In this document: positions 15,410-31,994 of the stretch, in pieces
Layout of the letters: each line of letters starts with the position of its first letter
Position numbering within the stretch: the first letter of the stretch is position 1
From: an uncultured Candidatus Saccharibacteria bacterium
GTDB lineage: Bacteria; Patescibacteriota; Minisyncoccia; JAHIHE01; JAGLIN01
Length of the DNA: 37,660 nt
NCBI GenBank assembly: GCA_964412905.1
Contig: CAYPQL010000005.1
Coordinates: 1 to 37,660, forward strand
Direction of reading: 5' to 3'
Notes under the pieces: generated by a model
The model's input: the letters and a program-made list of their open reading frames with translations, nothing else
Told to the model about the DNA's origin: nothing
The model's database searches: none
Translations under genes and position numbers: made by a program

Positions 15410-15440
15410 TCCGCCCAAGGCGGATCTGCCTAGTGCATGA
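15410..15440 (+). repeat. 31-nt double-hairpin insertion element
   Basis: TCCGCCCAAGGCGGA-TCTGCCTAGTGCATGA interrupts GAGATTG|CTTCGTCG, which is intact at 14929. Confidence 0.85.
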
Positions 15441-15536
15441 CTTCGTCGCTTTGATAAGCTCCTCGCGATGACAATTTCTTACGACAACAAATCAAAAAAT
15501 TATTTCCAAAATTAAAAACCATAAAATTCCAAAACT

Positions 15537-17114
15537 ATGCCAAAATATGAACCGGTAATCGGGATGGAGGTGCATATGGAACTGAAGACGAGGTCAAAGA
15601 TGTTTTGCTCGTGCGCGAATAATCCCGATGAAGCGCAGCCGAATAAAAATGTTTGTCCGATTTGCATGGGGCATCCGGGGACGCTTCCGGTTGCGAACAA
15701 AAAAGCGATAGAATATACGATTAAAACCGCGCTGGCTTTGAATTGCCAGATCGCGGAGCATTCCAAATTTGACCGTAAAAACTATTTTTATCCCGACCTT
15801 CCTAAAGGCTATCAGATTAGTCAATATGATATGCCGTTGAGTAAAAATGGCTATCTTGAAATTTATATGCCGGAAGATAAAGAACTAAAAAAATCCCAAA
15901 TCCCAAATCCCAAATCCCAAACAAACCCCAAATTACAAATTACAAATTACAAATTACAAGCTACTAAAAAAATAAACATAACCAGAATTCATTTGGAAGA
16001 AGACACAGGAAAGCTTATTCATCCTGCTGGCGCGGATTATTCTTTAGTTGATTTGAATCGCGCGGGAACGCCGCTTATGGAATTGGTGACGGAGCCGGAA
16101 ATAAAATCTTCGGAAGAGGCGAAGGAATTTTGCAAACAGCTTCAGTTGATTGTAAAATGCCTTGGAGTTTCGGACGCGGATATGGAAAAAGGGCATATGA
16201 GATGCGAGGCGAACATCAGCATAAAGCCCGTCGGTCAAAAAGAACTTGGGACAAAAGTAGAAGTTAAAAATCTGAATTCTTTCAGAGCGGTTGAGCGATC
16301 AATTGAATATGAAATCAAAAGACAGGCTGAAGTTTTGGACGATGGCGGAGAAATTATTCAGGAGACGCGCGGCTGGAACGCGGATAAGCAAGAGACATAT
16401 TCGCAGAGAAAAAAAGAGTCGGCGCATGACTATCGCTATTTTCCCGAGCCCGACTTGCCGCCGCTGGATTTAACTAAAAAGGCGGGAATGTTTGACATAG
16501 AAAAAATAAAAGAGAGTATTCCCGAATTGCCTTTACTCAAAAAATATCGTTTTATAAATCAATATAAATTATCAGAGGAGAACGCGCGGATATTTTCCGA
16601 AGACAAAGAGTTGGCGAATTATTTTGAACAAATCGTGTCGGAATTGCGAGCTTGGGTTTTGGCGAAAGGAATTGATGGAAATCGCTTAGATAAGCTCACA
16701 AAGCTTGCGGCAAATTATATTTTGACCGAGCTTCAGAGATTGCTTTATGTTGAAAATAACGCGGTATCATGCTGTAAAATTACCGCTGAAAATTTCGCTG
16801 AGTTTATAACGCTTATTGACGAAGGAAAAATTTCCAGTTCCGGCGCGCAAACAATGCTGGCTGAAATGTATAAAACAGGAGGAGATCCGTCAAATATCCT
16901 TGATGAAAAAGGGCTGGCGCAGGTGAGCGATGAAAGCGAGATTGAAAAAATTATTGGCGAGGTTATAAAAAACAACCCCAAGTCAGTCGGGGATTATCAA
17001 AATGGCAAAGATGCGGCGCTAAAATATTTAATCGGGCAAACGATGAAAGAAAGCAAAGGAAAGGCGAACCCGAAAATGGCGGAGGATATATTGAAAAAAA
17101 AGCTGAAATTATAA
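15537..17114 (+). CDS. gatB: Asp/Glu-tRNA amidotransferase subunit B
   Basis: IGMEVH, FDRKNYFYPDLPKGYQISQ, HLEED, NRAGTPLMELVTEP, YRYFPEPDL and GKANP. Confidence 0.97.
   Translation: MPKYEPVIGMEVHMELKTRSKMFCSCANNPDEAQPNKNVCPICMGHPGTLPVANKKAIEYTIKTALALNCQIAEHSKFDRKNYFYPDLPKGYQISQYDMPLSKNGYLEIYMPEDKELKKSQIPNPKSQTNPKLQITNYKLQATKKINITRIHLEEDTGKLIHPAGADYSLVDLNRAGTPLMELVTEPEIKSSEEAKEFCKQLQLIVKCLGVSDADMEKGHMRCEANISIKPVGQKELGTKVEVKNLNSFRAVERSIEYEIKRQAEVLDDGGEIIQETRGWNADKQETYSQRKKESAHDYRYFPEPDLPPLDLTKKAGMFDIEKIKESIPELPLLKKYRFINQYKLSEENARIFSEDKELANYFEQIVSELRAWVLAKGIDGNRLDKLTKLAANYILTELQRLLYVENNAVSCCKITAENFAEFITLIDEGKISSSGAQTMLAEMYKTGGDPSNILDEKGLAQVSDESEIEKIIGEVIKNNPKSVGDYQNGKDAALKYLIGQTMKESKGKANPKMAEDILKKKLKL
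15891..15957. repeat. In-frame heptamer tandem repeats within gatB
   Basis: (AAATCCC)x4-AAAC-AAACCCC-(AAATTAC)x4, encoding KSQIPNPKSQTNPKLQITNYKLQ. Confidence 0.95.
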
Positions 17115-17198
17115 TTTTAGGTCAAATAAACAAACAATAATAAAGTTTGGAAATTGTAAATTAGAAATTAAAAATTAGAAATTAAAAATTTCTATCCT

Positions 17199-18107
17199 AT
17201 GTCCACTTATAAAACGCAAGGGATAATTATAAGGCGAAGCAATTTTAGCGAAGCGAGTTTGATGCTGAATATTTATACGAAGGATTTTGGGAAGATTGAA
17301 GCTGTCGCGAGAAGCGCGCGGAAGGCGAAGGGAAAGCTCAAGGGGCATCTTGAGCTTTTTTTGCTGGCGGATTTGATTTTGGCAAACGGCAGAAGCATTG
17401 ATACGATCACGAGCAGCGCGGCGGCGGAGAGTTTTTTGAATTTGAGGAATAATTTGGAAATTTCGTTCGGGGCGTATTATATCATAGAACTTGCGGACAG
17501 GATGACGATTGAAGGACATAAGGATGAGAGAGTTTTTCATTTATTAAAAAAAACGCTGTTGTTTTTGGATGGATTGGCGAGTGAAAATAATTCTTTACTT
17601 ATCAAAACCCCCCAACCACCCTTATCAGGGGGGCAACTAGATAACGCTATTATAAATAGATATTATCTCTCCATTCTCATTTTCCAAATCCACATCCTAA
17701 CCCTCTCGGGGTTTTCGCCGGAGCTTGATAAATGCGTTGTCTGCTCCAAGCCGATAATGCCGGGAGAAAATTATTTCAGTTTTTCCCGCGGCGGAGTTGC
17801 GGGACGGGAGTGCGGTTTGCGAAAAGAAACTAAGCATTCTATAGGACGCTTAGCTTCCTTAGTTCCGATCAGCGACAATACCATCAAACTTCTTCGTTTG
17901 TTTCAGTTTAAAGGCAATAATAAATTAGGAAATAAAAATAGCCTTCCCGATAAGGGGGGTTGGGGGGTTGAAAAATGTTTTGAAATTATCCGCAAATTGA
18001 AAGCCGATGAAAAATTAGTCTTGGACGCGGTTTTTCTGATGAATAAATTTATTGAGTTTAATATTGAAAAAAAGGTGAAGGGGGTTGATTTTATAAAAGT
18101 TTTGTAG
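17199..18107 (+). CDS. recO: DNA repair protein RecO with three repeat-derived insertions
   Basis: N-terminal OB fold (KTQGIII...EAS..L.IYTKDFGKI.A.A.SARK), GFSPELDKCVVC zinc-site motif and FS...GG. Confidence 0.9.
   Translation: MSTYKTQGIIIRRSNFSEASLMLNIYTKDFGKIEAVARSARKAKGKLKGHLELFLLADLILANGRSIDTITSSAAAESFLNLRNNLEISFGAYYIIELADRMTIEGHKDERVFHLLKKTLLFLDGLASENNSLLIKTPQPPLSGGQLDNAIINRYYLSILIFQIHILTLSGFSPELDKCVVCSKPIMPGENYFSFSRGGVAGRECGLRKETKHSIGRLASLVPISDNTIKLLRLFQFKGNNKLGNKNSLPDKGGWGVEKCFEIIRKLKADEKLVLDAVFLMNKFIEFNIEKKVKGVDFIKVL
17606..17634 (-). repeat. G/C-run REP-like repeat in recO, copy 1
   Basis: Reverse complement GCCCCCCTGATAAGGGTGGTTGGGGGGTT matches 17941-17969 at 25/29. Confidence 0.85.
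17825..17858. repeat. Degenerate copy of the argS palindrome in recO
   Basis: AGAAACTAAGCATTCTATAGGACGCTTAGCTTCC, 28/34 identical to 10601-10634. Confidence 0.8.
17941..17969 (+). repeat. G/C-run REP-like repeat in recO, copy 2
   Basis: GCCTTCCCGATAAGGGGGGTTGGGGGGTT, encoding LPDKGGWGV. Confidence 0.85.
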
Positions 18108-18131
18108 TATCTTTTAAAAAGGAGGTATTAA

Positions 18132-18320
18132 ATGGAATTTGTTAAAAAAAATAAAGGGCTCTTAGCTGTAATTGCTATATTCGTTGCAGTTGTAATATTG
18201 GCAGCTATAACGCCAGAATCATGGACGATAACAAAACCTATCGTAGGATGGATTTTGCTAGCCTTTGCATTTATAGTTGTTGCTGGAGTGATATTGCTAT
18301 ATTTTATGACACGGCAATAA
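18132..18320 (+). CDS. Small two-TM hypothetical protein
   Basis: AAGGAGG SD, two hydrophobic helices, then the hairpin AACACAGTC/GACTGTGTT plus a T tract. Confidence 0.7.
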   Translation: MEFVKKNKGLLAVIAIFVAVVILAAITPESWTITKPIVGWILLAFAFIVVAGVILLYFMTRQ

Positions 18321-18456
18321 ACATCGCATAAACACAGTCAACCAAAAAACAGACTGTGTTCTTTTTTTGGACAAAACGGCGGATTTTCGGTATGATATGA
18401 TTGTATTGCAAAATATTTCATACAAACTGTTCTAGAACTTAAAAAAACAAAATTTT

Positions 18457-18541
18457 TGTCATTTCGAGCATCAGCGAGAAATCTATAAACTTTAGATATT
18501 TCTATAATTTTTAGATTTCTCGCGAGGCGCTCGAAATGACA
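18457..18541 (-). repeat. TGTCAT-family inverted doublet (TTCGA subtype)
   Basis: TGTCATTTCGAGC..GAGAAATCT-N28-AGATTTCTC..GCTCGAAATGACA. The spacer is a near reverse complement of the spacers at 24711, 25120 and 28601. Confidence 0.95.
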
Positions 18542-18556
18542 ATTTTAGAAAGCCTG

Positions 18557-18582
18557 ACCCTCGGCTAAAGCCGGGTAGAAAT
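18557..18582 (-). repeat. 26-bp hairpin repeat, copy 1
   Basis: Exact reverse complement of 25002-25027. Confidence 0.9.
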
Positions 18583-18627
18583 TATTATCCAACAATCCAA
18601 CAATCTAACAATACAGCAATAAAATAT

Positions 18628-20187
18628 ATGTTTGACTTTCCAAATTCCAAACCTAGCAATAGCAAAGACTATTGTATCCAAAGAAGCATTGAAATTTTGC
18701 CCGGGATTATAACATGGTCTTTTTTGATCGGAAGTTTTTATTTTGCTTTGAAGGCGCCTATAGCGGTGGCGATTTTTATTATAATTTTTGATCTGTATTG
18801 GATGGTGAAAATTTTTTATATTACCATTTTTATAATATTCGGATATAGAAGAATTAAAATTTGGGAAAAGATAGACTGGCTGGAAAAGTGCGAGAAATTT
18901 TCCCGTGGAGGCTTAACCTCTAAATTGGAGGCTAAGCCTCCACGGGAAAACTGGCGCGATTTGTATCACTTAGTAATCATTCCGACATACAAAGAAGGGC
19001 TGGAAATTTTGGAGCCGGCTCTTAACTCAATTTTAAATTCCGATTATCCGAAAGACAGGATGATTCTCGTTGCCGCTTTTGAAGAAAGAGCGGGGAGTGA
19101 GGCGTTGGAAAAAGCAAGAATTTTGGAAGAAAAATATAAAGACAAATTTTTTGCATATCTTACGACTTTTCATCCTGATGGAATTGCTGGCGAGGCAAAA
19201 GTCAAAGGCGCGAATGCCAGCTGGGCGGCGGAGGAAGCGAGGATATTTTTGGACGAAAAAAATATCAAATACGAGAATGCCGTAGTTTCCACTTTTGACT
19301 GCGACACTTGCGTCCATCCGAAATATTTCTCGGCTCTGGCGTATCAATTCATGAAAAATCCCAAAAGGCATCAATGCAGTTATCAGCCGCTTCCTCTTTA
19401 TAACAATAATATTTGGCAGACAAACAGCATTGTAAGGGTTATAATGGTGAGCTCGTCGTTTTGGCAGATTATGCAATGTGTTCGCTACAACAAGCTGGTG
19501 ACATTTTCCAGCCATTCAATGAGCTTCAAAACGCTCGTTGATGTTGATTATTGGCCGAGAGATATGATTTCCGATGATTCAATTATTTTCTGGAAATGTT
19601 ATCTTCTTTATCATGGCGATTATTTTGTTGAGCCGATTTTTTTGACTGTTTCTCTGGACGCGGTTCTTTCTAACAGCTATCTAAAAACCGTGATCAGCCA
19701 ATACAAACAGCAACGGCGATGGGCGTGGGGAATTGAAAATGTTCCTATAATTTATCGGGCGTTTTTGAAAGACAAAAAAATACCGCTATCTAAAAAATTG
19801 AGCAAAGGATGGGAAGAGCTTACCGGCAGAATTTCGTGGGGACTGACTCCGATAATCATTGCTCTCTTCGGCTGGCTCCCGATCTGGCTCGGAGGAGATG
19901 CATTTAATCAAACAGTTTTAGCTTCAAATCTTCCCAAAGTTCTGGGCTACCTGATGACCTTCGCGATGTTCGGGCTTATTGTGTCTATGTTCCTTTCCTT
20001 ATTTCTTCTTCCTCCTCCGCCCAAGAAAATCAGCCTATTAAAAAAATCCATTATGATAATTCAATGGATCCTCGCCCCTCTCGTCGCCATCCCCCTCGGC
20101 GCCCTTCCTATGATCGACGCCCAAACCAGAATGCTTTTCGGAAAATATATGGAATTTATGGTGACGGAGAAGATTAGGAAGAAATAG
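18628..20187 (+). CDS. Membrane-bound family 2 glycosyltransferase (processive type)
   Basis: IIPTYKE, DxD motif (DCD), QxxRW motif (QQRRW) and N- and C-terminal TM helices. Confidence 0.88.
   Translation: MFDFPNSKPSNSKDYCIQRSIEILPGIITWSFLIGSFYFALKAPIAVAIFIIIFDLYWMVKIFYITIFIIFGYRRIKIWEKIDWLEKCEKFSRGGLTSKLEAKPPRENWRDLYHLVIIPTYKEGLEILEPALNSILNSDYPKDRMILVAAFEERAGSEALEKARILEEKYKDKFFAYLTTFHPDGIAGEAKVKGANASWAAEEARIFLDEKNIKYENAVVSTFDCDTCVHPKYFSALAYQFMKNPKRHQCSYQPLPLYNNNIWQTNSIVRVIMVSSSFWQIMQCVRYNKLVTFSSHSMSFKTLVDVDYWPRDMISDDSIIFWKCYLLYHGDYFVEPIFLTVSLDAVLSNSYLKTVISQYKQQRRWAWGIENVPIIYRAFLKDKKIPLSKKLSKGWEELTGRISWGLTPIIIALFGWLPIWLGGDAFNQTVLASNLPKVLGYLMTFAMFGLIVSMFLSLFLLPPPPKKISLLKKSIMIIQWILAPLVAIPLGALPMIDAQTRMLFGKYMEFMVTEKIRKK
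18898..18950. repeat. REP-like palindrome in frame within the GT2 gene
   Basis: TTTTCCCGTGGAGGCTTAACCTC-TAAATTG-GAGGCTAAGCCTCCACGGGAAAA, encoding FSRGGLTSKLEAKPPREN. Confidence 0.9.
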
Positions 20188-20223
20188 AATTTAGAATTTG
20201 TAATGATGAATACGGGGGTTTTT

Positions 20224-20254
20224 GAGATAAAAAAAATAGGAAATGTTTTCCTAT
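20224..20254 (-). terminator. Terminator of the small ORF, duplicated at 20640-20668
   Basis: On the minus strand, an ATAGGA..TCCTAT hairpin plus T tract; 18 nt identical to 20640-20657. Confidence 0.65.
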
Positions 20255-20256
20255 TG

Positions 20257-20559
20257 TTATGTTTCTATTGCTTTAAATCGCGGGATCCATCCTCCATCAT
20301 GAGTGGAAACCCAGTCATGCTGAGGCAATTTATCTTGAAATACAAGTTCTGATACCTCAAATTTCAAAGCATGGATCGCCTCTAATAAATCTATTTTTTC
20401 TGTTTCACATGGATATTCATGCTCCATATCCTCCCACACAAGCGCGGCGAAATCCTCCATGGATAAGGGATACTTGCAGCTCATTATTTTTTGTTCTATC
20501 TCAGCCTTTTTATTTTCAATGAATTCTTCTAGCTTTGGGTCAAATTTTATTTCTGGAAT
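20257..20559 (-). CDS. Hypothetical protein, probably starting at ATT 20559 (alternative ATG 20484)
   Basis: The frame stays open 25 codons upstream of the ATG, to an ATT lying 7 nt after AGGAGG. Promoter-like TTGACA-N16-TAAGAT at 20608-20581. Confidence 0.55.
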   Translation of the reverse strand: MPEIKFDPKLEEFIENKKAEIEQKIMSCKYPLSMEDFAALVWEDMEHEYPCETEKIDLLEAIHALKFEVSELVFQDKLPQHDWVSTHDGGWIPRFKAIET

Positions 20560-20639
20560 TTTTATTCCTCCTTTGCTATAATCTTATCAAATTAATCAAC
20601 AATGTCAAATTTATTTATTCCGCGAAGATTTAGCTTGTC

Positions 20640-20668
20640 GAGATAAAAAAAATAGGAGTTTATCCTAT
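20640..20668 (-). terminator. Terminator of ORF 20685-21032
   Basis: Same hairpin and T tract as 20224-20254. Confidence 0.65.
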
Positions 20669-20684
20669 GTTATTTATTCTTGTT

Positions 20685-21032
20685 TTAATATCCCTTTTTC
20701 TTTATTTCTGGATATCTTTTTTCAAGTTCTTCTTTAGCTTTTTCGCTTAAGGATGGAATTTCTCTAATTATGTAAAGAAGATTTCCTTTGCTCGGATCTT
20801 TCTTTAATAATCTTTTCCAAACTTTTTTCCTTAGAAAAGGAAAATGCTTCATTACTGTAATTAGCGATGTTTCCTCGACATTCTTTATTCTCAGAAGCAT
20901 TCTTCCAAGCTTTGTTTGGGATTTATCATCAGACCTGATAGCATCGCAAAGTTGCTCTTCATTCATTTCAAGCGAATTATTTTTTGATTTTTGCTTTTCT
21001 ATTCTTTCCCTTATTTTTTTTATAAGTTTCAT
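20685..21032 (-). CDS. Hypothetical basic helical protein
   Basis: 115-aa ORF with AGGAGG 8 nt upstream and a terminator downstream. Confidence 0.65.
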   Translation of the reverse strand: MKLIKKIRERIEKQKSKNNSLEMNEEQLCDAIRSDDKSQTKLGRMLLRIKNVEETSLITVMKHFPFLRKKVWKRLLKKDPSKGNLLYIIREIPSLSEKAKEELEKRYPEIKKKGY

Positions 21033-21118
21033 CTACTATTCCTCCTATAAAAATCCGGCAAATTATTTTTTTGAATAAAATGCCATGGTTATTAATATGC
21101 TACCTAAAACAACTGAAT

Positions 21119-22155
21119 ATGTCAAATTTTTTTCTTTATTTCAATCCATTTCTTCTGGCTTTTATTTTGAGCTTTGTTTTGACGATGGGGATTATTTTGT
21201 TTTGGAATAAATATATTAGTAGAATAAAGCCTGATGTTTCCCGTTTTGGCGGGGCGGCTATTATCATTTCGTTTCTGGCGGCGATATTTTTGAGCGGAAA
21301 TCTGGCGCTTGATAATTTGAAATGGGGGATAATCGTTTCAAGTTTGATAATTTTATTTTTTGGAATATACGACGATCTAAAAAACCTGTCGTGGAAAAAA
21401 CAGCTTTTGGGGCAATTGCTAATCGTAATAATAATGATCTATGCTGGACTTCAAGTTGACTACATCGCCAATCCATTCGGCGGCGCGGAATTCAGATTAG
21501 ACAGTTTCCAGTTTCTCTGCCTAAGGCAGACCAGCCTCGGGCTGGCACTTTCCAGTTTTCAATTCTCGGCTCATTGTTTATTTTATTCTGGATCGTTGGC
21601 TTTATGAACGCAATGAATTGGCTGGACGGATTGGACGGGCTGGCTGGCGGAGTGGGATTTATCGGAGCGATAACTTTATTTTTTCTAAGCATATCCAATC
21701 TGGTCAATCAGTCGCCGCTCGGAATAATATCTATTATTCTGGCCGGAGCGATTTTAGGGTTTTTGATTTTTAATTTCTATCCTGCTAAAATTTTTATGGG
21801 AACTTCGGGCTCTATGTTCCTCGGATTTATTCTGGCTGTTCTGGCGATTTTTTCCGGCGGGAAAATCGCTACCGCTCTTTTGGTGATGGGCTTTCCGATT
21901 TTGGACGCGGTTTGGGTTATAGCTCAAAGAATAAAATCTGGAAAATCTCCATTCAAAGGCGACGCGCGGCATCTGCATTACAAGCTTTTGGAAAAAGGCT
22001 GGCCGCAGAAAAAAGTTGTTTTATTCATCTATTCCATCTGTATTATTTTCGGCGTCTCGGCCATTCTTTTTCAAAATATAAATAAATTATTTGCGCTGGC
22101 GATCTTGTTCATTTCTTTTCATCTCGTCTTGTTAAAAGTCTTAAACAAAAATTAA
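21119..22155 (+). pseudogene. WecA/TagO-like polyprenyl-phosphate sugar-1-phosphate transferase (GT4/MraY superfamily), split by a frameshift near 21515-21545
   Basis: The 5' ORF has SRFGG and GIYDD. The 3' ORF, in another frame, has NAMNWLDGLDGLA, FNFYPAKIFMG and D.RHLH. A double-hairpin element sits at the junction. Confidence 0.75.
21516..21545 (-). repeat. Double-hairpin insertion element at the frameshift
   Basis: Minus strand CCAGCCCGAGGCTGG-TCTGCCTTAGGCAGA, same architecture as 15410, 31337 and 31875. Confidence 0.85.
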
Positions 22156-22255
22156 TAAATTGCTGTATTGTTAAAATGTTTATATGAATCTCTCGCGTAT
22201 TGACAGAAAAAATATTTGTGCTAATGTGTATTAGTGATTTGAAATTAATAATTGA

Positions 22256-22591
22256 TTGCAAAATATGACTGAAAGCAGCTTTGACAAGATTAAAAAACTT
22301 ATGAAGATTGTCGGGGGCAAGGCTATCATAGTTGAAAACGGGGAGCCGACTTTTGTGATTATAAATATTGACGAGTACACTGATTTCAGCAAGATTGAAA
22401 ACTCCGCCAGCCATCCGGAAAATAACACCGAACATCCGGAAGAAAAAGAAGAAGAAATCAACAGAGATGTCGAAATTTGGAAGACAAGGCAGATTCAAAA
22501 AAGACTAAAGCAATTTAAGGCCGAGGATAATTTTATGGGACTGGATGATGAAAGAATAACGAACGATGAAATTACCGTGGAAAAACTGTAA
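22256..22591 (+). CDS. Hypothetical protein; N-terminus reminiscent of the Phd/YefM fold, acidic tail
   Basis: GGKAIIVENGEPTFVIINIDEY; promoter-like TTGACA-N16-TAATGT at 22200-22227. The start is probably ATG 22265. Confidence 0.6.
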   Translation: MQNMTESSFDKIKKLMKIVGGKAIIVENGEPTFVIINIDEYTDFSKIENSASHPENNTEHPEEKEEEINRDVEIWKTRQIQKRLKQFKAEDNFMGLDDERITNDEITVEKL

Positions 22592-22705
22592 AAATTATTT
22601 TGATATTTGACAAAAGCATCGGCAGTGTATTATAATCAATAAATGCTGAATTGAGGCAAAATTACATAAACTCGCAATAAAATATATTTGATTGCGATCA
22701 AGCGC

Positions 22706-22733
22706 TTGCCAAATTTTTTTTATGTGCTAATAT
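22706..22733 (+). promoter_or_regulatory. Putative tuf promoter
   Basis: TTGCCA-N16-TAATAT with TGn; a second candidate is TTGACA(22607)-N18-TATAAT. Confidence 0.45.
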
Positions 22734-22873
22734 ATGTGTATTGCTTTAAAAAGGAAACAGGCAATTTTGTATAAACGATATAAATTTAATATTTTTAAAA
22801 ACTAATCTTATAAATCAAAGTTTAAGAGCGACAAGTTTTCTCTTGCTTTGGTTTCTAAAAGGAGAATCATAAA

Positions 22874-24073: not shown

Positions 24074-24100
24074 GGAGATTCATATCTTCTTATTTTTTGT
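24067..24100 (+). terminator. Probable terminator after tuf
   Basis: TAAGGAGAT-TCAT-ATCTTCTTA followed by TTTTTTG. Confidence 0.5.
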
Positions 24101-24122
24101 TTTACTAGTTTAAGAAAAAAAT

Positions 24123-24326
24123 ATGAATGAAGAAATTCCAGTAACTGAAGAGAAATATAAGGAACATACAGAGGATGATTTAAAAGAAGAGTTGATTGAA
24201 GTTTTGCGGAGAAAATCGAAAGAAAGAGGGACGAATATTAATGAGGATACCCTAGTAAAAATTAGAGAAGAAAAAGATCCTGGAAAAATGTTGATACTAC
24301 TTGCAGAAGTAGTAGCAGAAATTTAA
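24123..24326 (+). CDS. Small acidic hypothetical protein between tuf and rpsJ
   Basis: 67-aa Glu-rich ORF filling the spacer; no motif recognised. Confidence 0.5.
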   Translation: MNEEIPVTEEKYKEHTEDDLKEELIEVLRRKSKERGTNINEDTLVKIREEKDPGKMLILLAEVVAEI

Positions 24327-24368
24327 TATATCAAACATAATCCATAATTAATCCAAGTAAAAACCTAA

Positions 24369-24704
24369 ATGCCAGAAAATACGAAAGAGGAAGGCGAATC
24401 AAAGCCGAAGATTCGAGTGAAAATTAAAGCTTATGATCACAAGGTGATTGATCAGTCCGCAAAACAAATCGTGGAGACTGCTCTTCGAAATGGAGCGTCC
24501 GTCAGAGGGCCTATACCTTTGCCTACTGAGATTAGCAAAATCACGCTAAACAGTTCAACATTTGTTCACAAAGACGCCAGAGACCAGTATGAAATGAGAG
24601 TTCACAAGAGATTAGTTGATATTTTTGATTTAAGCCCGAAAATAATTGATTCTCTGACAAACTTGAATCTGCCGGCCGGAGTTTTTATAGAAATTAAAAT
24701 GTAA
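24369..24704 (+). CDS. rpsJ: 30S ribosomal protein S10
   Basis: IRVKIKAYDH, GPIPLPT and HKRLVDI. Confidence 0.97.
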   Translation: MPENTKEEGESKPKIRVKIKAYDHKVIDQSAKQIVETALRNGASVRGPIPLPTEISKITLNSSTFVHKDARDQYEMRVHKRLVDIFDLSPKIIDSLTNLNLPAGVFIEIKM

Positions 24705-24710
24705 CAAAAT

Positions 24711-24796
24711 TGTCATTTCGAACGCCTCGTGAGAAATCTAAGAGTTATAGAAATATCTAAAGTTTATAGATTTCTCGCTATTCGCTCGAAATGACA
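24711..24796 (+). repeat. TGTCAT-family inverted doublet (TTCGA subtype)
   Basis: TGTCATTTCGAAC..GAGAAATCT-N28-AGATTTCTC..TCGAAATGACA. Confidence 0.95.
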
Positions 24797-25001
24797 AATA
24801 TGTTGTTTTATAATTTGAAGAAGTTAGCAATGTAATGAAGTTAACAATTTAATATTTTATGCTAGTTTAAGTGCTTATTTGCTGGATCTCGTGAAAAATT
24901 TCCGGTTAAGAAGTAATTAAGAGTATACTGAATTAGCCAATTAGAAATCGGATAATAACGGTTGCAGTTGGTTGAATTGTCTGGTTTTTTTATTTGCATC
25001 G

Positions 25002-25027
25002 ATTTCTACCCGGCTTTAGCCGAGGGT
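25002..25027 (+). repeat. 26-bp hairpin repeat, copy 2
   Basis: ATTTCTACCCGGCTTTAGCCGAGGGT. Confidence 0.9.
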
Positions 25028-25119
25028 TTGCGAGGTTTTAAACTCGTGAGAAAAAAAATATTGAAACAGTTTAAGATTAAAATAATCACTCAGCTACTCT
25101 AAAAAATATTCTAGAAATC

Positions 25120-25213
25120 TGTCATTTCGAACGCCTCGTGAGAAATCTAAAAACTATAGAAATATCTAAGGTTTATAGATCTCTCAATCGCTGATGCTCA
25201 TTTCGAGATGACA
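25120..25213 (+). repeat. TGTCAT-family inverted doublet (TTCGA subtype)
   Basis: Left arm identical to 24711; right arm is the exact reverse complement of the left arm at 37307. Confidence 0.95.
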
Positions 25214-25288
25214 AGTTTAATGAGAAAATTAACTTACAAAAAACAATATAACAATTTAACAATACAGCAATATAACAATTTAAATCAT

Positions 25289-25921
25289 ATGAAATTTATT
25301 CTAGGGAAAAAAATAGGGATGAGCCAAATCTTCAATGAAGAAAATAAGGAAGTTATTCCTGTGACTTTGATTGAGGCCGGACCTTGCGTCGTTACAAAAC
25401 TTATTACGAAAGAAAAAGATGGTTATCAAGCTATTCAAGTCGGATTTTTGGAAAAGAAAAAAATCAACAAACCTTTGGCAGGACATTTGAAAGAACTGGG
25501 AAAATTTAGATATCTCGTAGAATTCAGAACAGAAGAAGACAATAAAGAATACAAAATCGGAGAAAAAATAGAAGCCTCAACTTTTGAAATAGGGGACGAT
25601 ATAAGAGTAATTGGAACTTCAAAGTCAAAAGGATTTCAGGGAGTTATGAAAAGACATGGTTTTAGAGGCGGTCCAGCATCGCACGGACAAAAACACAGCA
25701 ACAGAAAACCGGGAACTATCGGCAGCGGATTTCCAGAGCATGTGACAAAAGGAAAAAGAATGGCCGGAAGAATGGGCGGAGGACAGATCACTCAGCTTGG
25801 GTTGAAAGTCGCGGGCATTGACAAAGATAAAAATTTGTTGTTAATTAAAGGTTCAGTGCCGGGAAATATCGGGTCATTGGTGGAGATTATAACAAAGAAG
25901 GAAAATAGAAAGAATAATTAA
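25289..25921 (+). CDS. rplC: 50S ribosomal protein L3
   Basis: MKFILGKKIGMSQIF, KGFQGVMKRH and KGKRMAGRMG. The start was moved to 25289 because the upstream extension is repeat DNA. Confidence 0.97.
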   Translation: MKFILGKKIGMSQIFNEENKEVIPVTLIEAGPCVVTKLITKEKDGYQAIQVGFLEKKKINKPLAGHLKELGKFRYLVEFRTEEDNKEYKIGEKIEASTFEIGDDIRVIGTSKSKGFQGVMKRHGFRGGPASHGQKHSNRKPGTIGSGFPEHVTKGKRMAGRMGGGQITQLGLKVAGIDKDKNLLLIKGSVPGNIGSLVEIITKKENRKNN

Positions 25922-25972
25922 TATCCGAAAACTTGTTTAAGTTTATTTTACAAAAAAGTAATTTATAAATAT

Positions 25973-26605
25973 ATGATAAAAGCCAAGGTTTATAATCTGG
26001 AAGGAGCGGAAACGGGAGAAATTGAACTTTCGGAAAGAATTTTTAGAGTGGAGATGAAAGACGATCTGGTCCATCAAGCATTTGTCGCGCAAATTTCAAA
26101 TTCAAGGCAGGTTTTGGCTGATACGAAAGACAGAGGAGAAGTTAGGGGCGGAGGAAAAAAACCTTGGAAGCAGAAGGGAACGGGAAGATCAAGACACGGT
26201 TCAAGCAGATCTCCGATTTGGAAAGGCGGAGGAGTTACTTTCGGGCCTACTTCCGACAGAAATTACAGCAAGAAAATAAACAAGAAAATGAAAGCTAAAG
26301 CTCTTTTTATGGTTCTTTCTTCAAAGGCAAGAGATAATGAAATGATAATTTTGGACGACGCGAAGCTGGAAAAAGTTTCAACAAAAACGATGAGCGGCGC
26401 CTTGAAAAAATTGCCGGTGAAGGGAAAAATCCTGTTTTCTTTGAGCAAAAAAAATGATCAAGTTTTCAAGTCAATCAAAAATATTCCCGATGTTTCAATG
26501 ATCGCCAGCGATTCCTTGAATGTCGCCGATTTGCTGAAAAATAAAACTTTTATTATAGATAAAAAAGGAATAGAGATGATAGAGAAAATATATAAGCAGA
26601 AATAA
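25973..26605 (+). CDS. rplD: 50S ribosomal protein L4
   Basis: TKDRGEVRGGGKKPWKQKGTGR and GGGVTFGP. Confidence 0.97.
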   Translation: MIKAKVYNLEGAETGEIELSERIFRVEMKDDLVHQAFVAQISNSRQVLADTKDRGEVRGGGKKPWKQKGTGRSRHGSSRSPIWKGGGVTFGPTSDRNYSKKINKKMKAKALFMVLSSKARDNEMIILDDAKLEKVSTKTMSGALKKLPVKGKILFSLSKKNDQVFKSIKNIPDVSMIASDSLNVADLLKNKTFIIDKKGIEMIEKIYKQK

Positions 26606-26650
26606 TTTGTAAGATATTTTAAGAAAATTCAGAAAATAATATAAAATAAT

Positions 26651-27079
26651 ATGGGAATTCTAGATAAAATCATAAAAAAAGACAAGGAAGGCAAATCTCC
26701 CGAAAAGGATTTTAAGCAAGAAAAGAATGCTAAGAAGCAAGAAAAGAAAGCGGTTTCTAAGGTTAAAAAAGTTTCCAAAGACAAGATACCAAATAATTAT
26801 TTTGACTTGATAAGGAAGCCGCACATTTCCGAAAAAACTTTTAATCTTTCCAAAGAAGGTCAGTATGTTTTTATAATTTCCGACAGGTCTAATAAATCAG
26901 AGATAAAAAAGGCGGTTGAAAGTCTGTATGGAGTTTCTGTCGTAAGCGTTAATGTCATCAGCGTGCCGTCCAAGCCTAAAATGTCCAAAGGCAAACCGAG
27001 TGTTAAAGACGGATACAGAAAAGCGATAGTCAAACTGGCGAAAGGACAAAGCATTGATGTAATGAAGGAAACGAAATAA
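26651..27079 (+). CDS. rplW: 50S ribosomal protein L23 with a Lys-rich N-terminal extension
   Basis: IRKPHISEK, NKSEIKKAVE and RKAIVKL; operon position. Confidence 0.93.
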   Translation: MGILDKIIKKDKEGKSPEKDFKQEKNAKKQEKKAVSKVKKVSKDKIPNNYFDLIRKPHISEKTFNLSKEGQYVFIISDRSNKSEIKKAVESLYGVSVVSVNVISVPSKPKMSKGKPSVKDGYRKAIVKLAKGQSIDVMKETK

Positions 27080-27110
27080 ATTGCTAAATTGTTGCATCGC
27101 TAAACTTTTC

Positions 27111-27216
27111 TGTCATTCTGAATTTATTTCAGAATCTATCGCATGCTATATTTAGCCTAAAATAAGCAAATATAACCTTAGCAGCAAGAAGATCCTGAAA
27201 CGAGTTCAGGATGACA
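27111..27216 (+). repeat. TGTCAT-family inverted doublet (CTGAA subtype), no insert
   Basis: TGTCATTCTGAATTTATTTCAGAATCT ... AGATCCTGAAACGAGTTCAGGATGACA. Confidence 0.95.
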
Positions 27217-27287
27217 ATGAGAGGATTTAAAATAATATCAAATATAGATAGCAATTTAGCAATACAACAATTTAACAATATAATCAT

Positions 27288-28130
27288 ATGGCAGTAAAAA
27301 AATATAAACCAACGTCTCCGGGCAGAAGAGGAATGATGGGCTATGACTTTTCCACGCTGGACAAAAAAGATCCGGAGAAAAGCTTGCTTGGAAAAATGAC
27401 AAGAAAAGTGGGCAGAGGCAGCGCGGGGAAAATCACGACCAGGCACAGAGGCGGCGGCGCGAAAAAGAGATTCAGAATAATTGATTTCAAGATGAACAAG
27501 TTTGATATTCCGGCAAAAGTTGAATCTATTGAATATGATCCGAACAGAACGGCGTTTATCGCTTTGCTTATTTACGCGGACGGGGAAAAAAGATATGTCA
27601 TCGCTTTGGAAGGGCTGAAAAAAGGCGATGAAATTGTTTCGTCCGCAAGCGCGCCGATAAAAATCGGAAACAGGGTTTCTTTGAAAAACATTCCATCCGG
27701 GACGGTTATAAGCAATGTTGAAATGTTTCCCGGAAAGGGCGGGCAATTTGCCAGATCCGCGGGATCATTCGCAAGGTTAATGGCGATTGAAGGAGGATTC
27801 GCCCATGTGGGCTTGTCTTCCGGTCAGACTAAAATAATTTCTGAAAACTGTTCTGCCACAATTGGACAGGTGAGCAATGCAAGCTATAATACAGTTGTTA
27901 TTGGAAAAGCGGGAAGATCAAGGTGGATGGGCAGAAGGCCTCAAGTAAGGGGAAGCGCGATGAATCCGGTGGATCATCCTCACGGAGGAGGAGAAGGAAG
28001 ACAGCCTATCGGGTTGAAGCATCCGAAAACTCCATGGGGAAAGCCAGCGCTTGGATATAAAACGAGAAGAAAGAATAAGCGCGTAAGTAATTCCAGGAGA
28101 AAGAAAGAAATAGTAGAAACAGCTGAATAG
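27288..28130 (+). CDS. rplB: 50S ribosomal protein L2
   Basis: IEYDPNRTA and [19 protein letters not shown]. Confidence 0.98.
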
Positions 28131-28169
28131 AAAATAATTTAATATAAGGAATTTCAATATAAACATTAT

Positions 28170-28218
28170 AACTAATTCCAAATTCCAAATTACTAATTAC
28201 TAATTACAAATTACAAAT
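28170..28218. repeat. Heptamer tandem array before rpsS
   Basis: AATTCCA / AATTACT / AATTACA units, same family as the gatB insertion. Confidence 0.8.
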
Positions 28219-28551
28219 ATGTCAAGATCGCTAAAAAAAGGTCCTTATGTGGACGAAAAACTGATGGAGAAAGTCGGCAATTTAAAAGCCGGAGATAAAA
28301 CCGTTATTAAAACATGGGCGAGAAATTCTTCGATTTGTCCTGAAATGGTCAGTTTTACTTTCGGGGTTCACAATGGAAAACAGCATATAAATGTTTTTGT
28401 CACGGAAGATATGGTCGGACATAAGCTTGGGGAATTTTCCCCGACGAAAAAGTTTGTTAAGCATGGCGGCAAGATGCAGAAGGAAATAGAGAAAGCTCCG
28501 GAGGGCGGCAATGGCAATAAAGAGGTCAAAGAAAGTAAAAAATTAGTTTAA
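28219..28551 (+). CDS. rpsS: 30S ribosomal protein S19
   Basis: [12 protein letters not shown] and [12 protein letters not shown]. Confidence 0.98.
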
Positions 28552-28600
28552 ATTGCAAAATAATGTTAAGCGCGAAAAAAGCCGCTTATCCTAAAAAATC

Positions 28601-28686
28601 TGTCATTTCGAGCGTGTCGCGAGAAATCTAAATATTATAGAAATATCTGAAGTTTATAGATTTCTCGCCTACGGCTCGAAATGACA
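28601..28686 (+). repeat. TGTCAT-family inverted doublet (TTCGA subtype)
   Basis: TGTCATTTCGAGCGTGTCGCGAGAAATCT-N28-AGATTTCTCG..GCTCGAAATGACA. Confidence 0.95.
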
Positions 28687-28733
28687 AGCATAGTATTTCA
28701 ACAATAACTACATAACAGCATAATTTCAAATAT

Positions 28734-29072
28734 ATGGAAGTTCAAGCGCATTTAAAGAATTTAAGAGTTTCTCCGAGAAAAGTAAGACTGATTATTAATG
28801 TTATCAGGGGCATGGTTGTGAGCGACGCTAAAACTAACCTTGGTTTTATCAGCAAAAAATCGGCTGAGCCGGTTTTGAAATTGCTCAATTCCGCAGTGGC
28901 GAACGCAAAGCACAATTTTAATTTAAATGAAAACAATTTATATGTTTCAAAAGTGTTTGTGAATGAAGGGCCGATGTTGAAAAGATGGACGCCGAGAGCC
29001 ATGGGAAGAGCGTCCGCTATACATAAGAGAACAAGCAACATCACTTTAATCTTGGACGAGAAATCAAAATAA
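28734..29072 (+). CDS. rplV: 50S ribosomal protein L22
   Basis: RVSPRKVRL, SAVANA and PRAMGRA. Confidence 0.97.
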   Translation: MEVQAHLKNLRVSPRKVRLIINVIRGMVVSDAKTNLGFISKKSAEPVLKLLNSAVANAKHNFNLNENNLYVSKVFVNEGPMLKRWTPRAMGRASAIHKRTSNITLILDEKSK

Positions 29073-29095
29073 TAACACGCTAATACGAATTATTT

Positions 29096-29734
29096 ATGGG
29101 AAGAAAAATAAATCCATTTTTACATAGGCTGGGCATTATAAGAGATTGGAAATCAAAGTGGTTTAACGCGGGCAATTACAGAAAGTTTTTACGAAAAGAT
29201 GTGGAACTGCGAGAATTTTTGCGGGAAAAATTGAAAAAAGCTTTGATTGACGATGTTATAATTGAAAGGTCCTCAAACAGCATGGTTGTAAGCGTATATT
29301 CCGCAAGGCCTGGAATTATCATAGGCAGAGGAGGAACTGGCGCGGAAGAATTGAAAGCTGATATAATTAAAAAGATAGGCGAGAAAATAGAAATCAAAGT
29401 TAATATAATTGAAATCCGCAATGTGGAATTAAACGCCAATCTGGTCGCTCAAGCAGTCGCGGAGCAAATTGAAAAAAGAGCCGCTTTTCGAAAAGTCCTG
29501 AAGCAAGCGATTGAAAAAACTATGCATAATAAGCAAGCGCAAGGGATAAAAATCGCGGTTTCCGGCAGGCTGAATGGAGCGGAAATGTCCAGAGTTGAAT
29601 GGTTGAGCGAAGGAAAAATCCCCCTGCAAACCATAAGGGCCGATATTGATTTCGCGAAATACACCGCGCGAACCACTTACGGAGCGATCGGAGTAAAAGT
29701 TTGGATATATAAAGGGGAGATATTTGAAAATTAG
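29096..29734 (+). CDS. rpsC: 30S ribosomal protein S3
   Basis: RPGIIIGRGG, SGRLNGAEM and YGAIGVKVWI. Confidence 0.97.
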   Translation: MGRKINPFLHRLGIIRDWKSKWFNAGNYRKFLRKDVELREFLREKLKKALIDDVIIERSSNSMVVSVYSARPGIIIGRGGTGAEELKADIIKKIGEKIEIKVNIIEIRNVELNANLVAQAVAEQIEKRAAFRKVLKQAIEKTMHNKQAQGIKIAVSGRLNGAEMSRVEWLSEGKIPLQTIRADIDFAKYTARTTYGAIGVKVWIYKGEIFEN

Positions 29735-29783
29735 AATATTGAATTTAGAATTTAGAATATTGTTTAAATGTTAAAATGATCAT

Positions 29784-30203
29784 ATGTTAATGCCAAAAAA
29801 GGTAAAACACAGGAAGCAGCATAAGGGCAGAAATCGCGGAAAGGCGCGGAGAGGTTTCAGTATTTCTTTTGGATCTTTTGCCTTGAAGTCTCTTGAAAAT
29901 TCTTGGGTTACGAGCCGGCAAATTGAAGCGGCGAGAAGAGCAATGACGAGATATGTCCAGAGAGGCGGGAAGATTTGGGTAAGAATTTTTCCGGATAAGC
30001 CGATTACCAGAAAGCCTGCGGAAGTTCCCATGGGCAGCGGGAAGGGCAGTTTGGATCACTTCGCGGCGGTTGTGAAAACCGGGAAAATAATTTTTGAAAT
30101 GGATGGAGTTGAAGAAAAAGTGGCAAGAGAGGCGATGGAAAGAGCTAGTCATAAATTGCCGGTCAAGACGAAGTTTATTTCAAAAGAGATTGATTTGATG
30201 TAA
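29784..30203 (+). CDS. rplP: 50S ribosomal protein L16
   Basis: [26 protein letters not shown] and MGSGKG. Confidence 0.98.
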
Positions 30204-30310
30204 TTTGTAATAATCACTGTATTACGGAGTCCTGACGAAAGTCAGGAGGAAATATCGCAATTCTAAGGACTCCGGTTTGCCTAATTAAAAAATATCATTA
30301 ATTTTAGAAT

Positions 30311-30514
30311 ATGAAAGCTAAAGAGTTAAGGGAAAGATCAGAAAATCAATTACAGGCTTTAGTAAAAGAAAGCAAAGAGAAGCTTAATAAGCTGCGTTTT
30401 TCTCTCGCGAACAGGCAGTTGAAGGATTATAGCGATGTAAAAAAAACGAAAAAGATCATTGCCAGAGCGAAATCCGTTTTGAAAGAAAAAACTGAAAAAT
30501 CAAGCAAGAAATAA
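30311..30514 (+). CDS. rpmC: 50S ribosomal protein L29
   Basis: MKAKELR, LRF and IARAKS; operon position. Confidence 0.92.
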   Translation: MKAKELRERSENQLQALVKESKEKLNKLRFSLANRQLKDYSDVKKTKKIIARAKSVLKEKTEKSSKK

Positions 30515-30541
30515 CACTATTAAATTTTCAAAATAATCATT

Positions 30542-30829
30542 ATGAACAAAGATAATAATCAAGTGAAAAAAGAAAGTGGCAAGAAAAGCGCCAAAGGAAA
30601 AATTGGGATTGTTGTGAGCGACAAAATGGACAAGACGGTGGTCGTGAAAGTTGATAGGCTGAAAATGCACCCGATTTACAGGAAGAAATATAAAGTAAGC
30701 AAGAAATATAAAGCGCATGATGAAGAGAATAAATTCAAGGAAGGGGATAAAGTTATGCTTATAGAAACAAAGCCGATGAGCAAAGAGAAAAAATGGATTG
30801 CAAAAGAAATTGAAAGCAAAAAAGCATAA
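30542..30829 (+). CDS. rpsQ: 30S ribosomal protein S17
   Basis: [18 protein letters not shown] and KYKAHDE. Confidence 0.97.
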
Positions 30830-30881
30830 TAGATGCAAGTAAAACTAATATTAACCTAACGAAGTAAATTAATTTATATTT

Positions 30882-31253
30882 ATGATTCAACAAGGAACTA
30901 AAATTATAATCGCGGACAATTCGGGGGCGAAGTGGGGAAGATGTATCAAAGTTCTTGGCGGAACAAGAAAAAGATACGCTTATCTTGGCGATGTTATCGT
31001 AATTACCGTGAAAGCTTCCGAGCCTCGAGGGCAAGTCAAGAAAGGAGAAGTCGCCAAAGCCGTGATTATCAGGCAGAGAAAAAGTTTCAAAAGAAAAGAC
31101 GGTTCTTATATCCGCTTTGATGATAATGCCGTTGTGATTGTTGATAAAGACAATATAACTCCGAAAGCCACTCGAGTGTTCGGGCCGGTTGCCAGAGAAT
31201 TAAGAAACGGCGGTTTTATGAAAATAATTTCCTTAGCGCCGGAAGTGCTGTAA
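30882..31253 (+). CDS. rplN: 50S ribosomal protein L14
   Basis: [15 protein letters not shown] and ISLAPEVL. Confidence 0.98.
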
Positions 31254-31320
31254 ATAATTAAATCGTCGTAGTATGGCAGTGCGACAATGTGAAATATATG
31301 GGTATTATTCTGAGTTCTAC

Positions 31321-31456
31321 TGTCATTCTGAACTTGTCAGCCTGTGGCTGATCTGCCAGAGGCATGATTTCAGAATCTACTATATACTACATTTAGCTTA
31401 ATAAGCAAATATAATCCTATTTATACGAAAGATTCTGAAATGAATTCAGGATGACA
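31321..31456 (+). repeat. TGTCAT-family doublet (CTGAA subtype) with a 31-nt double-hairpin insert at 31337-31367
   Basis: TGTCATTCTGAACTTG[TCAGCCTGTGGCTGA-TCTGCCAGAGGCATGA]TTTCAGAATCT ... TTCAGGATGACA. Confidence 0.95.
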
Positions 31457-31501
31457 AATAAGAGGATTTAGAATAATATCATTATATAACAATGAAATAC
31501 T

Positions 31502-31828
31502 ATGAAAATTAAAACTAATGACAAGGTAAAAATAATCGCAGGCAAGGATAAAGGCAAAGAAGGAAAGGTTACCAGAGTAATTCCTGAAATTAGAAAAGTT
31601 GTTGTTGAAAATGCAAACCTTGTAAAAAAACATATAAAAGCGAAAAGGCAGGGAGAGAAAGGGCAGAAAATCACCGTCGCTTCGCCGATCAATGTTTCTA
31701 ATGTCGTTTTGCTTTGTCCGAAATGCAATAAACAGACGAGAGTCGGATATCTGGTTTTGGAGAACGGGGAGAAACATAGAATTTGCAAAAAATGCAAACA
31801 GGACATAGCGATTCAAGTTAAGAAATAA
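31502..31828 (+). CDS. rplX: 50S ribosomal protein L24
   Basis: DKVKIIAGKDKGKEG and PINVSNV. Confidence 0.96.
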   Translation: MKIKTNDKVKIIAGKDKGKEGKVTRVIPEIRKVVVENANLVKKHIKAKRQGEKGQKITVASPINVSNVVLLCPKCNKQTRVGYLVLENGEKHRICKKCKQDIAIQVKK

Positions 31829-31858
31829 ATATAACAGCGCTATTATTTCAAATTTTCT

Positions 31859-31994
31859 TGTCATTCTGAACTTGTCAGCCTGTGGCTGATCTGCCAGAGG
31901 CATGATTTCAGAATCTACTGTATGCTGCATCTAGCTTAAAATAAGCAAACAAAACCTTGAAGCAAGAAGATCCTAAAATGAATTCAGGATGACA
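31859..31994 (+). repeat. TGTCAT-family doublet (CTGAA subtype) with the same insert at 31875-31905
   Basis: The first 61 nt are identical to 31321-31381. Confidence 0.95.

Follow-up and report, generated by a model that had tools for sequence, protein, structure and literature searches.

Contig CAYPQL010000005.1 of an uncultured Candidatus Saccharibacteria bacterium (assembly GCA_964412905.1; positions 1 to 37,660, a stretch of 37,660 nt hereafter called the window) carries four copies of a very short, GC-rich double-hairpin element, which is the subject of this report. The window is contig C5 of G000, the genome under study, a small groundwater Patescibacteria genome of 1.28 Mb in 89 contigs with 36.6% G+C. 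Other G-numbers designate comparison genomes, and C-numbers contigs within a genome. An initial annotation of the window had described the four copies as a mobile micro-element that inserts into larger repeats, and had attributed its movement to the HUH chemistry of IS200/IS605 elements.

Results

The four copies were recovered at the annotated positions, three of them being 31 nt and one 30 nt long. The first 31-nt copy (15410..15440, plus strand; 39.6 bits, E 5.9e-7) has a degenerate second hairpin and is nested in a larger repeat, host repeat B (15404..15472, plus strand), which reads AGATTG|element|CTTCG...CGCGATGAC, the vertical bar marking here and below the insertion point. This filled repeat is the right-hand bracket of a small GIY-YIG nuclease gene of 96 aa (15107..15397, plus strand; PF01541, 50.2 bits). 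The left bracket is an empty, inverted B repeat (15011..15044, minus strand), and a further empty one, AGATTG|CTTCG..., lies at 14930..14967 (plus strand). Two other 31-nt copies, identical to each other, occupy the loop of a second type of host, hairpin A, upstream (31337..31367, plus strand) and downstream (31875..31905, plus strand) of rplX, whose identity was confirmed with Pfam. The upstream one belongs to a doublet (31322..31455, plus strand) made of a filled hairpin (31322-31377) and an inverted empty hairpin (31431-31455), and the downstream doublet (31860..31993, plus strand) is its duplicate across rplX. Duplication of the composite on either side of this gene had been proposed and is borne out: 150 of 176 aligned bases are identical, and the two units are sisters on the repeat tree with a support of 95. 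A doublet with both hairpins empty (27112..27215, plus strand) provides a paralogous empty site. The fourth copy, of 30 nt (21516..21545, minus strand), lies in a heptamer array of a WecA/MraY-family (Glycos_transf_4) gene, which extends over 21071..22155 (plus strand) in two frames (21071-21607, then open from 21460, with an ORF at 21574-22155). Removal of 31 nt restores the host sequence as annotated, since GAGATTG|CTTCGTCG occurs empty at 14929 and GAACTTG|TTTCAG is found empty genome-wide.

A covariance model (R1) was built from 55 copies (alignment A1). Its search of G000 returned 119 matches over two strands at E <= 0.1, and 60 distinct loci when these were counted at E <= 0.01, so that the family is larger than first noted. 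A search for perfect stems gave 27 matches in the same genome, 26 of which were the double-hairpin element. The four window copies are thereby confirmed as members of a family of about sixty 30- or 31-nt GC-rich double-hairpin inserts. In a scan of the window with Rfam no family matched the element, the sole match being a tRNA.

The unit of the element is a 15-nt GC-rich hairpin, with a 6-bp stem and a 3-nt loop, paired as an inverted dimer for a total of 30 nt. The 30-nt form (30 loci in G000) has two hairpins of the type TCYGCC-N3-GGCRGA or variants thereof; in the 31-nt form (30 loci) the second of them, TCTGCC-N3-GGCA(T)GA, has one bulged T. The compensatory stem changes seen by the initial annotation are real. 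They were counted in 61 copies from G000 and its relatives, collected with a pattern that left stem positions 1/15, 3/13 and 6/10 free. Over these 122 hairpins, the pairs were TA 90, CG 29, TG 2 and CA 1 at positions 1/15, CG 77, AT 42 and 3 others at positions 3/13, and CG 112, TA 5, TG 3 and CA 2 at positions 6/10. Applied to A1, the two-hairpin structure had 99.1% of cells paired, a figure that is partly due to construction since the rows had been picked with a Y/R pattern, the covarying positions being left free; 6 of the 12 pairs changed on both sides. The covariation score was 0.294, versus 0.117 for shuffled alignments, and was reached by none of 500 shuffles, while slid controls gave 0.013-0.066.

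The picture of two abutting mini-hairpins was correct for some copies only. Folded as single-stranded DNA, the 21516 copy forms two hairpins (-10.7 kcal/mol, z -3.99). The second hairpin of the 15410 copy is degenerate, as mentioned above, and the 31337 copy forms one fold-back (-8.4 kcal/mol), which within its host lengthens the host stem to a 56-nt hairpin (-14.3 kcal/mol, z -3.6). One long hairpin, the minimum-energy fold of this last copy, was considered for the whole family, yet it fitted poorly. Unlike stems are present in the two hairpins of 44 of 57 copies, and in these 44 the variable pairs were Watson-Crick in 255 of 264 cases under the two-hairpin model, versus only 115 of 264 under the long hairpin. 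On A1 the latter had 85.6% of cells paired, although the structure string used was shifted a little at the gap column. Between the two hairpins of a copy, the loops are mutually complementary at all three positions in 17 of 61 copies and at two of three in 30 of 61, and loop columns 7/24 and 9/22 covary across the two hairpins. Because its two loops tend to be complementary, the element resembles an inverted dimer of the 15-nt hairpin.

Filled and empty versions of the same sites were then compared, among repeats of G000 and among orthologous genes. All 30 copies of the 31-nt form lie within host A (19) or host B (11). Host hairpin A, defined as GTCATYCTGAA-loop-TTCAGRATC, has 92 matches in G000. 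A 5-nt loop is found in 69 of them, the same loop enlarged by exactly 31 nt in 16, and other lengths in the remaining 7. Three more filled copies are broken off at contig ends. The loop sequence matters: CTTG loops were empty in 22 cases and filled in 16, whereas other loops were empty in 47 and filled in none (Fisher's test 2.8e-7, a value that overstates the evidence since the host A copies are related). Host repeat B, AGATTG|CTTCG...CGCAATGAC, has 29 matches, of which 13 lack an insert, 11 carry 31 additional nt and 5 are different, including 2 empty copies with a mis-anchored start.

Host A hairpins form inverted doublets, of which 36 were found. A tree was drawn for 27 units of at most 140 nt (8 longer units and 1 odd one being omitted), the element having been stripped before alignment. 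On this tree, 7 changes are required to account for the filled state, with starred branches forcing 3 or more of them, so that filled and empty doublets are interspersed. The 31-nt subfamily thus appears, from these repeat sequences, to have been gained or lost several times within its two host repeats.

Orthologous genes gave exact empty sites as well. In the LeuRS gene, G000 reads aatgaaatg|30 nt|gaaaaa, and all 29 aligned relatives are empty there (in G026, aatgaaatg|gaaaaa). For the WecA/MraY-family gene, aligned in 18 relatives, the G014 sequence differs from that of G006 by exactly 30 additional nt at caatatt|caatatt; the site is filled in G028, empty in its congener G030, and occupied by a degenerate remnant in G025. 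The net gain is therefore exactly 30 or 31 nt, without target duplication, at four kinds of site (hosts A and B, LeuRS and WecA/MraY). For the TGT gene, no exact empty partner was found among the aligned genes of relatives, because the TGT loop is hypervariable. Where G000 has heptamers and the element in this loop, G016 and G005 have an in-frame hairpin repeat of the GTCAC/GTCAT type, translated as ...LRQAQDDN, and G001 has a (GATCAAA)4 array. The exact empty alleles and the lack of duplication agree with the proposal of a discrete, structure-defined insertion unit nested in larger repeats, and they support its being a mobile micro-element that would parasitise them.

Other small hairpins were seen at similar places. 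A single 15-nt hairpin lies in the LeuRS gene of G031, 6 nt beyond the G000 insertion site, and a different hairpin of 21 nt, CCTGCC...GGCAGG, lies inside a heptamer array of the LeuRS gene of G016. Mini-hairpins are also present at like sites in G000 (C27:13202, C17:24088 and C31:11808): one akin to the 21-nt hairpin occupies an A loop, and the single hairpins, of 15-16 nt, are lodged in an A-like repeat and a B-repeat loop.

It had been stated that every copy follows TG. This is the case for the four window copies and for the whole 31-nt form, all 30 members of which are preceded by TTG. In the family at large, TG is common only, and the rule is a symmetric T-N|N-A: in G000, 58 of 60 copies have T at -2, the same number have A at +2, and the site is often TTG|RAA. 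Among 124 copies collected across phyla, 106 had T at -2 and 97 had A at +2. The 30-nt form occupies heptamer arrays, tRNA remnants and housekeeping genes (12 copies). Fourteen of its 30 loci touch a period-7 array, and such arrays (766 as detected by TRF at a low threshold) cover 1.47% of G000. They also occur in frame within conserved genes of the same family, even in relatives free of the element. Overall, the favoured sites are AT-rich heptamer unit boundaries, the loop or arm of GTCAT-type hairpins, tRNA remnants and permissive protein loops. The idea that heptamer arrays are 7-bp footprints of insertion or excision was set aside, because the orthologous pairs show a gain of 30 nt without an added unit, and because the arrays occur also in element-free relatives.

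These flanks bear on the possibility that no dedicated enzyme is involved, and that the element spreads during replication or repair, by template switching or ectopic gene conversion guided by microhomology within heptamer arrays and host repeats, with its hairpins stalling or redirecting synthesis. The 7-nt sequences to the left and right of the element differ by at most one base in 21 of 60 copies, versus 5% of between-locus pairs, as microhomology guidance would have it, and the frequent contact with period-7 arrays points in the same direction. Complementary loops would be the expected trace of a 15-nt unit duplicated in inverted orientation by strand switching, single units of that size being present in the LeuRS gene of G031 and at C17:24088, and no enzyme family among those examined tracks the number of copies. 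Against this, the same sequence is conserved across phyla, sister genomes with the same heptamer arrays have no copies, and sites such as LeuRS are only weakly homologous to other flanks. We consider spread without an enzyme to be unlikely.

Twelve of the thirty 30-nt copies of G000 lie within Pfam-confirmed housekeeping genes. These are LeuRS, Pth, a UvrD-like helicase, GvpL/F-DnaJ, a response regulator, a prepilin peptidase, Pol I (5'-3' exonuclease domain), TGT, an alpha/beta hydrolase, MurB, an RluD-like pseudouridine synthase and the WecA/MraY-family gene of the window. Translation gives S-A-x-G-G-S-A-x-G-G or a near variant for ten of the copies and P-P-x-A-D-P-P-x-A for the other two; by a simple calculation, the chance that at least 10 of 12 fall in one given frame is about 5e-4. 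The Pth insert corresponds to a 9-residue gap against solved Pth structures. Eleven of the 12 genes remain open, the WecA/MraY-family gene of the window being split in two frames. In most of the 18 relatives this gene has a native heptamer array, (AATATTC)n, translated as QIQYSIFNIQYSVL. The array to the left of the element measures 13 nt in G000 versus 20 nt in G014, where the gene is in frame, and both right sides measure 22 nt; one 7-nt unit is therefore missing in G000, and the frame shifts. G000 has a single match to this gene. The split gene could be a pseudogene, or reflect population heterogeneity or an assembly error.

The distribution of the element among genomes was examined with sequence patterns. 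A strict TCCGCC pattern with at most one mismatch was found in 8 of 41 relatives (control 0), and a looser one in 17 of 41. In an even sample of the phylum, the looser pattern was found in 60 of 401 genomes, with a maximum of 24 copies in a genome. The reversed-pattern control gave 0 in both sets, so the family is more than a chance assembly of stems. Looser-pattern copy numbers were 28 in G031, 21 in G002, 17 in G000, 13 in G028 and 7 in G014; 24 genomes had none. A search for the exact pattern with one genome per species gave at least 126 stretches. Among the 80 matches listed, all were in metagenome-assembled genomes (MAGs), including those of many Patescibacteria lineages, uncultured Saccharibacteria, Omnitrophota, Kiritimatiellae, Verrucomicrobiota, Planctomycetales, Ignavibacteria, Bacteroidota, Chloroflexota and uncultured Gammaproteobacteria. 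In one Kiritimatiellae MAG an exact element lies 13 nt from a GTCATTCCGAGCG...GGAATCTC hairpin repeat, so that the association with GTCAT-type repeats extends beyond Patescibacteria.

Such strong conservation of the stem sequence across phyla might indicate a selected functional motif, for instance an RNA structure, a signal for uptake or recombination, or a palindrome bound by a protein, that was retained wherever it had arisen. The symmetric flanks would fit a motif of this kind, as would the extension of the host A stem to a 56-nt hairpin. However, the motif is absent from 24 of 41 relatives and from 341 of the 401 sampled phylum genomes, its positions are not conserved between relatives, and copies are found in the loops of unrelated housekeeping proteins, one of them in a frameshifted gene. 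In the window it has no Rfam family match either. A function selected in place is thus very improbable.

A search for a nuclease gene flanked by the motif, as suggested by the initial annotation, led to the small GIY-YIG gene of the window, bracketed by B repeats and followed, 13 nt past its stop codon, by the 15410 copy. Inward-facing GTCAT motifs, belonging to type A or B, enclose the gene at 9 of 20 GIY-YIG loci of relatives, a count made with two narrow motifs, by which diverged ends would be missed. Because GIY-YIG genes are so bracketed, hosts A and B resemble the terminal repeats of GIY-YIG cassettes, and the doublets look like gene-less derivatives of such cassettes.

Three GIY-YIG loci (G002:C15, G021:C23 and G014:C36) share another layout. 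A partial 5' copy of a tRNA is followed by the element, by 4-6 nt of tRNA sequence and by the GIY-YIG gene, and a full copy of the tRNA 5' sequence lies downstream of that gene. ARAGORN called an intact tRNA gene in G002 and G014 (Ser and Glu); in G021 the contig ends within the second copy, and no tRNA was called. The tRNA-junction copy of G021 is the only element in that genome with the looser pattern. Gene-less versions of the layout occur in G000, at C35:13700-13837 upstream of a tRNA-Ser gene and at C45:1-132, where a tandem pair lies at the contig end. Within the partial tRNA copies, the element interrupts the D loop or the anticodon loop.

The GIY-YIG cassette of the window lies upstream of gatB. 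It was not found at that locus in any of the 15 relatives examined, and no exact empty site is available because synteny differs among them. The GIY-YIG protein has its closest homologue (85% identity) in G031 (C156), a genome of another family with 28 copies of the element, and the best matches within the same family are 78% in G001 and, next, 62% in G014. The gene could have been acquired by horizontal transfer. In GatB itself (15537-17114), residues 1-200 align only with genomes of family f2 (67-71%), alignments with the same family reaching only to about residue 109; this segment of GatB could be an insertion or a foreign segment.

The HUH chemistry proposed initially was examined in parallel. 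In an IS200/IS605-type element, a Y1 transposase or a REP-associated tyrosine transposase (RAYT; REP, repetitive extragenic palindrome) would recognise two terminal hairpins and insert 3' of a short motif ending in TG. Several traits of the element agree with it: insertion is seamless and without duplication, the ends are hairpins, one of which has a bulged T in the 31-nt form, all 30 copies of that form follow TTG, and a RAYT is present in G000 (NF047646, 113 bits versus a cut-off of 80). However, this RAYT (C10:9178-9720) is the only Y1 gene of G000, and it is bracketed by its own, different REP, GGCTCCACTC-N4-GAGTGGAGCC, which has 11 copies in the genome and is neither the element nor one of its hosts (locus C10:9128-10339). 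RAYT homologues are found in 18 of 23 genomes of the same family, most of them without the element, and were not found in G028, G030, G031 and G035. Likewise, the Pfam family Y1_Tnp is present in G002, G014 and G035, but G028 (13 copies, 95% complete) and G031 (28 copies, 96% complete) gave no match to it. The resident RAYT was therefore rejected as mobiliser, on its own REP and on the distribution of Y1 and RAYT genes.

The symmetry of the element also differs from that of HUH elements. IS200/IS605 ends are asymmetric, and IS608 has subterminal hairpins and guide sequences. By comparison, the element is a nearly perfect inverted dimer and, like its flanks, two-fold symmetric, with hairpins at the very ends that leave no room for subterminal guides, and the conserved flanks are two-sided (T at -2, A at +2) rather than the one-sided tetra- or pentanucleotide of an IS200/IS605 target. 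The attribution to HUH chemistry is not upheld; it is quite improbable, and a transposase of this type is probably the less likely agent.

Discussion

In our opinion the observations are best accounted for by a non-autonomous, structure-defined insertion element that would be moved in trans, a break made by a GIY-YIG nuclease followed by copying being the best candidate for its mechanism. We give this reading a probability of roughly 60%. The element enters DNA as an exact block of 30 or 31 nt, at symmetric T-N|N-A sites and without target duplication. The trans-acting enzyme would work at the DNA level, on the palindrome or cruciform and on its symmetric target, and a small GIY-YIG nuclease may make the break, into which repair would copy another copy of the element.

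A number of observations weigh against this reading. No GIY-YIG match was found by protein search or Pfam in G035, which has 7 copies of the element. Conversely, the element is absent from G003, G012, G015 and G022, each of which has 5-6 GIY-YIG matches, and only 1 of the 4 small GIY-YIG genes of G000 has a copy within 150 nt. The number of GIY-YIG genes does not track that of the element, the matches in copy-rich genomes being 14 in G222, 11 in G365, 7 in G031 and 3 in G028. The two exact orthologous pairs give the polarity of insertion, not its mechanism. As to mobility among the repeats, the counts of filled and empty sites are not independent because the repeat copies are paralogues; the A-doublet tree rests on 109 alignment columns; and its shuffles average 9.0 changes, 60 of 500 being as low as observed, which is compatible with some clustering of the filled state. 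The link between GIY-YIG genes and the element is, overall, suggestive.

A broader scenario can be drawn, in which the 30-nt double hairpin would be the smallest known bacterial mobile DNA unit and the travelling end of GIY-YIG cassettes. The nuclease would cut T-N|N-A in tRNA loops, in heptamer arrays and in its own terminal hairpins, and repair would bring in a copy of the cassette as a whole or of the double hairpin by itself. Taken as a whole this scenario is speculative, and rather unlikely. If true, one nuclease family would seed ten-residue linkers into essential proteins across many uncultured phyla.

If indeed mobile, this unit of 30 nt would stand at the lower size limit of transposable DNA, in some of the smallest bacterial genomes, and would cross phylum boundaries. 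Its consequences for proteins are direct: it adds exact ten-residue Ser/Ala/Gly linkers to essential proteins such as LeuRS, Pol I, UvrD, TGT, MurB and Pth. Heptamer arrays and the element together can disrupt a reading frame, the WecA/MraY-family gene of the window being an example. The element may serve in practice as a cheap marker of spurious ORFs and of indel-prone sites in MAGs. A limited search of open-access text found no account of such elements in Patescibacteria. New here are the confinement of the 31-nt subfamily to what look like the end hairpins of GIY-YIG cassettes, the symmetry of the T-N|N-A target, the exact empty sites among both paralogues and orthologues, and a gene whose frame is shifted by a single heptamer unit next to the element.

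The element fails membership of the IS200/IS605, REP/RAYT, classic MITE (miniature inverted-repeat transposable element) and Rickettsia palindromic element (RPE) families. A classic MITE is ruled out by the lack of target-site duplication at the four kinds of site. With REP/REPIN-RAYT systems and IS200/IS605 mini-elements it shares short repeats defined by hairpins, host repeats arranged as doublets and seamless insertion. It differs from them in that the resident RAYT has another REP, that it does not co-occur with Y1 genes, that it is not restricted to extragenic DNA (12 of 30 copies of the 30-nt form being inside genes) and that it is two-fold symmetric.

A second comparison is with the small dispersed repeats (SDRs) of Nostocaceae, which Elhai and co-workers are said to have described in 2008 (Genome Res 18:1484). 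Repeats of this kind look mobile, measure some 20-30 nt (21-27 nt by definition) and insert into other repeats. SDRs are associated with heptamer tandem repeats. By description the element is like them in its size class, in having no known enzyme and in nesting in other repeats. According to the excerpts of PMC5861425, HIP1 may be the insertion site of SDR5, and SDRs are reported only in Nostocaceae. The element differs from what those excerpts describe in sequence and lineage, in being a double hairpin and in its frequent in-frame presence in housekeeping genes. RPEs, as presented in extracts of PMC10969869, are about 150 bp long and restricted to Rickettsia. Like the element they are palindromic, lie in frame in unrelated metabolic or housekeeping genes and are translated as an extra peptide. 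The element, unlike the RPEs of these extracts, adds exactly 10 residues and occurs in many phyla; it also inserts in frame, and it is because of its length of 30 nt that it is not counted as an RPE.

The remaining parallels are mitochondrial. Yeast GC clusters, as described by Wu and Hao (2015, PMC4478555), are GC-rich palindromes in AT-rich DNA that undergo rapid turnover, merger, nesting and horizontal transfer, features shared with the element. Their mechanism is described there as unsettled, with intron-encoded endonucleases proposed as helpers. Unlike the element, which is bacterial and has no target-site duplication, they have putative ones. The element also resembles the double-hairpin elements (DHEs) found in Allomyces (Paquin, Laforest and Lang 2000, as relayed in part by PMC2800124). 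Shared with the DHEs, as far as that source relates them, are short GC-rich two-hairpin units in an AT-rich genome, sporadic occurrence between close relatives, absence of flanking duplication, and insertion into intergenic DNA and tolerant gene positions; DHEs are reported there as not removed from transcripts. The differences are that the element is bacterial, spans phyla and has a fixed length of 30 or 31 nt. Compared by description (two hairpins, no duplication, sporadic presence), and within what the same source conveys, the element and the mitochondrial DHEs are the same kind of object. The GIY-YIG link would offer a concrete handle on what moves mitochondrial GC clusters and double-hairpin elements, a question open since the 1980s.

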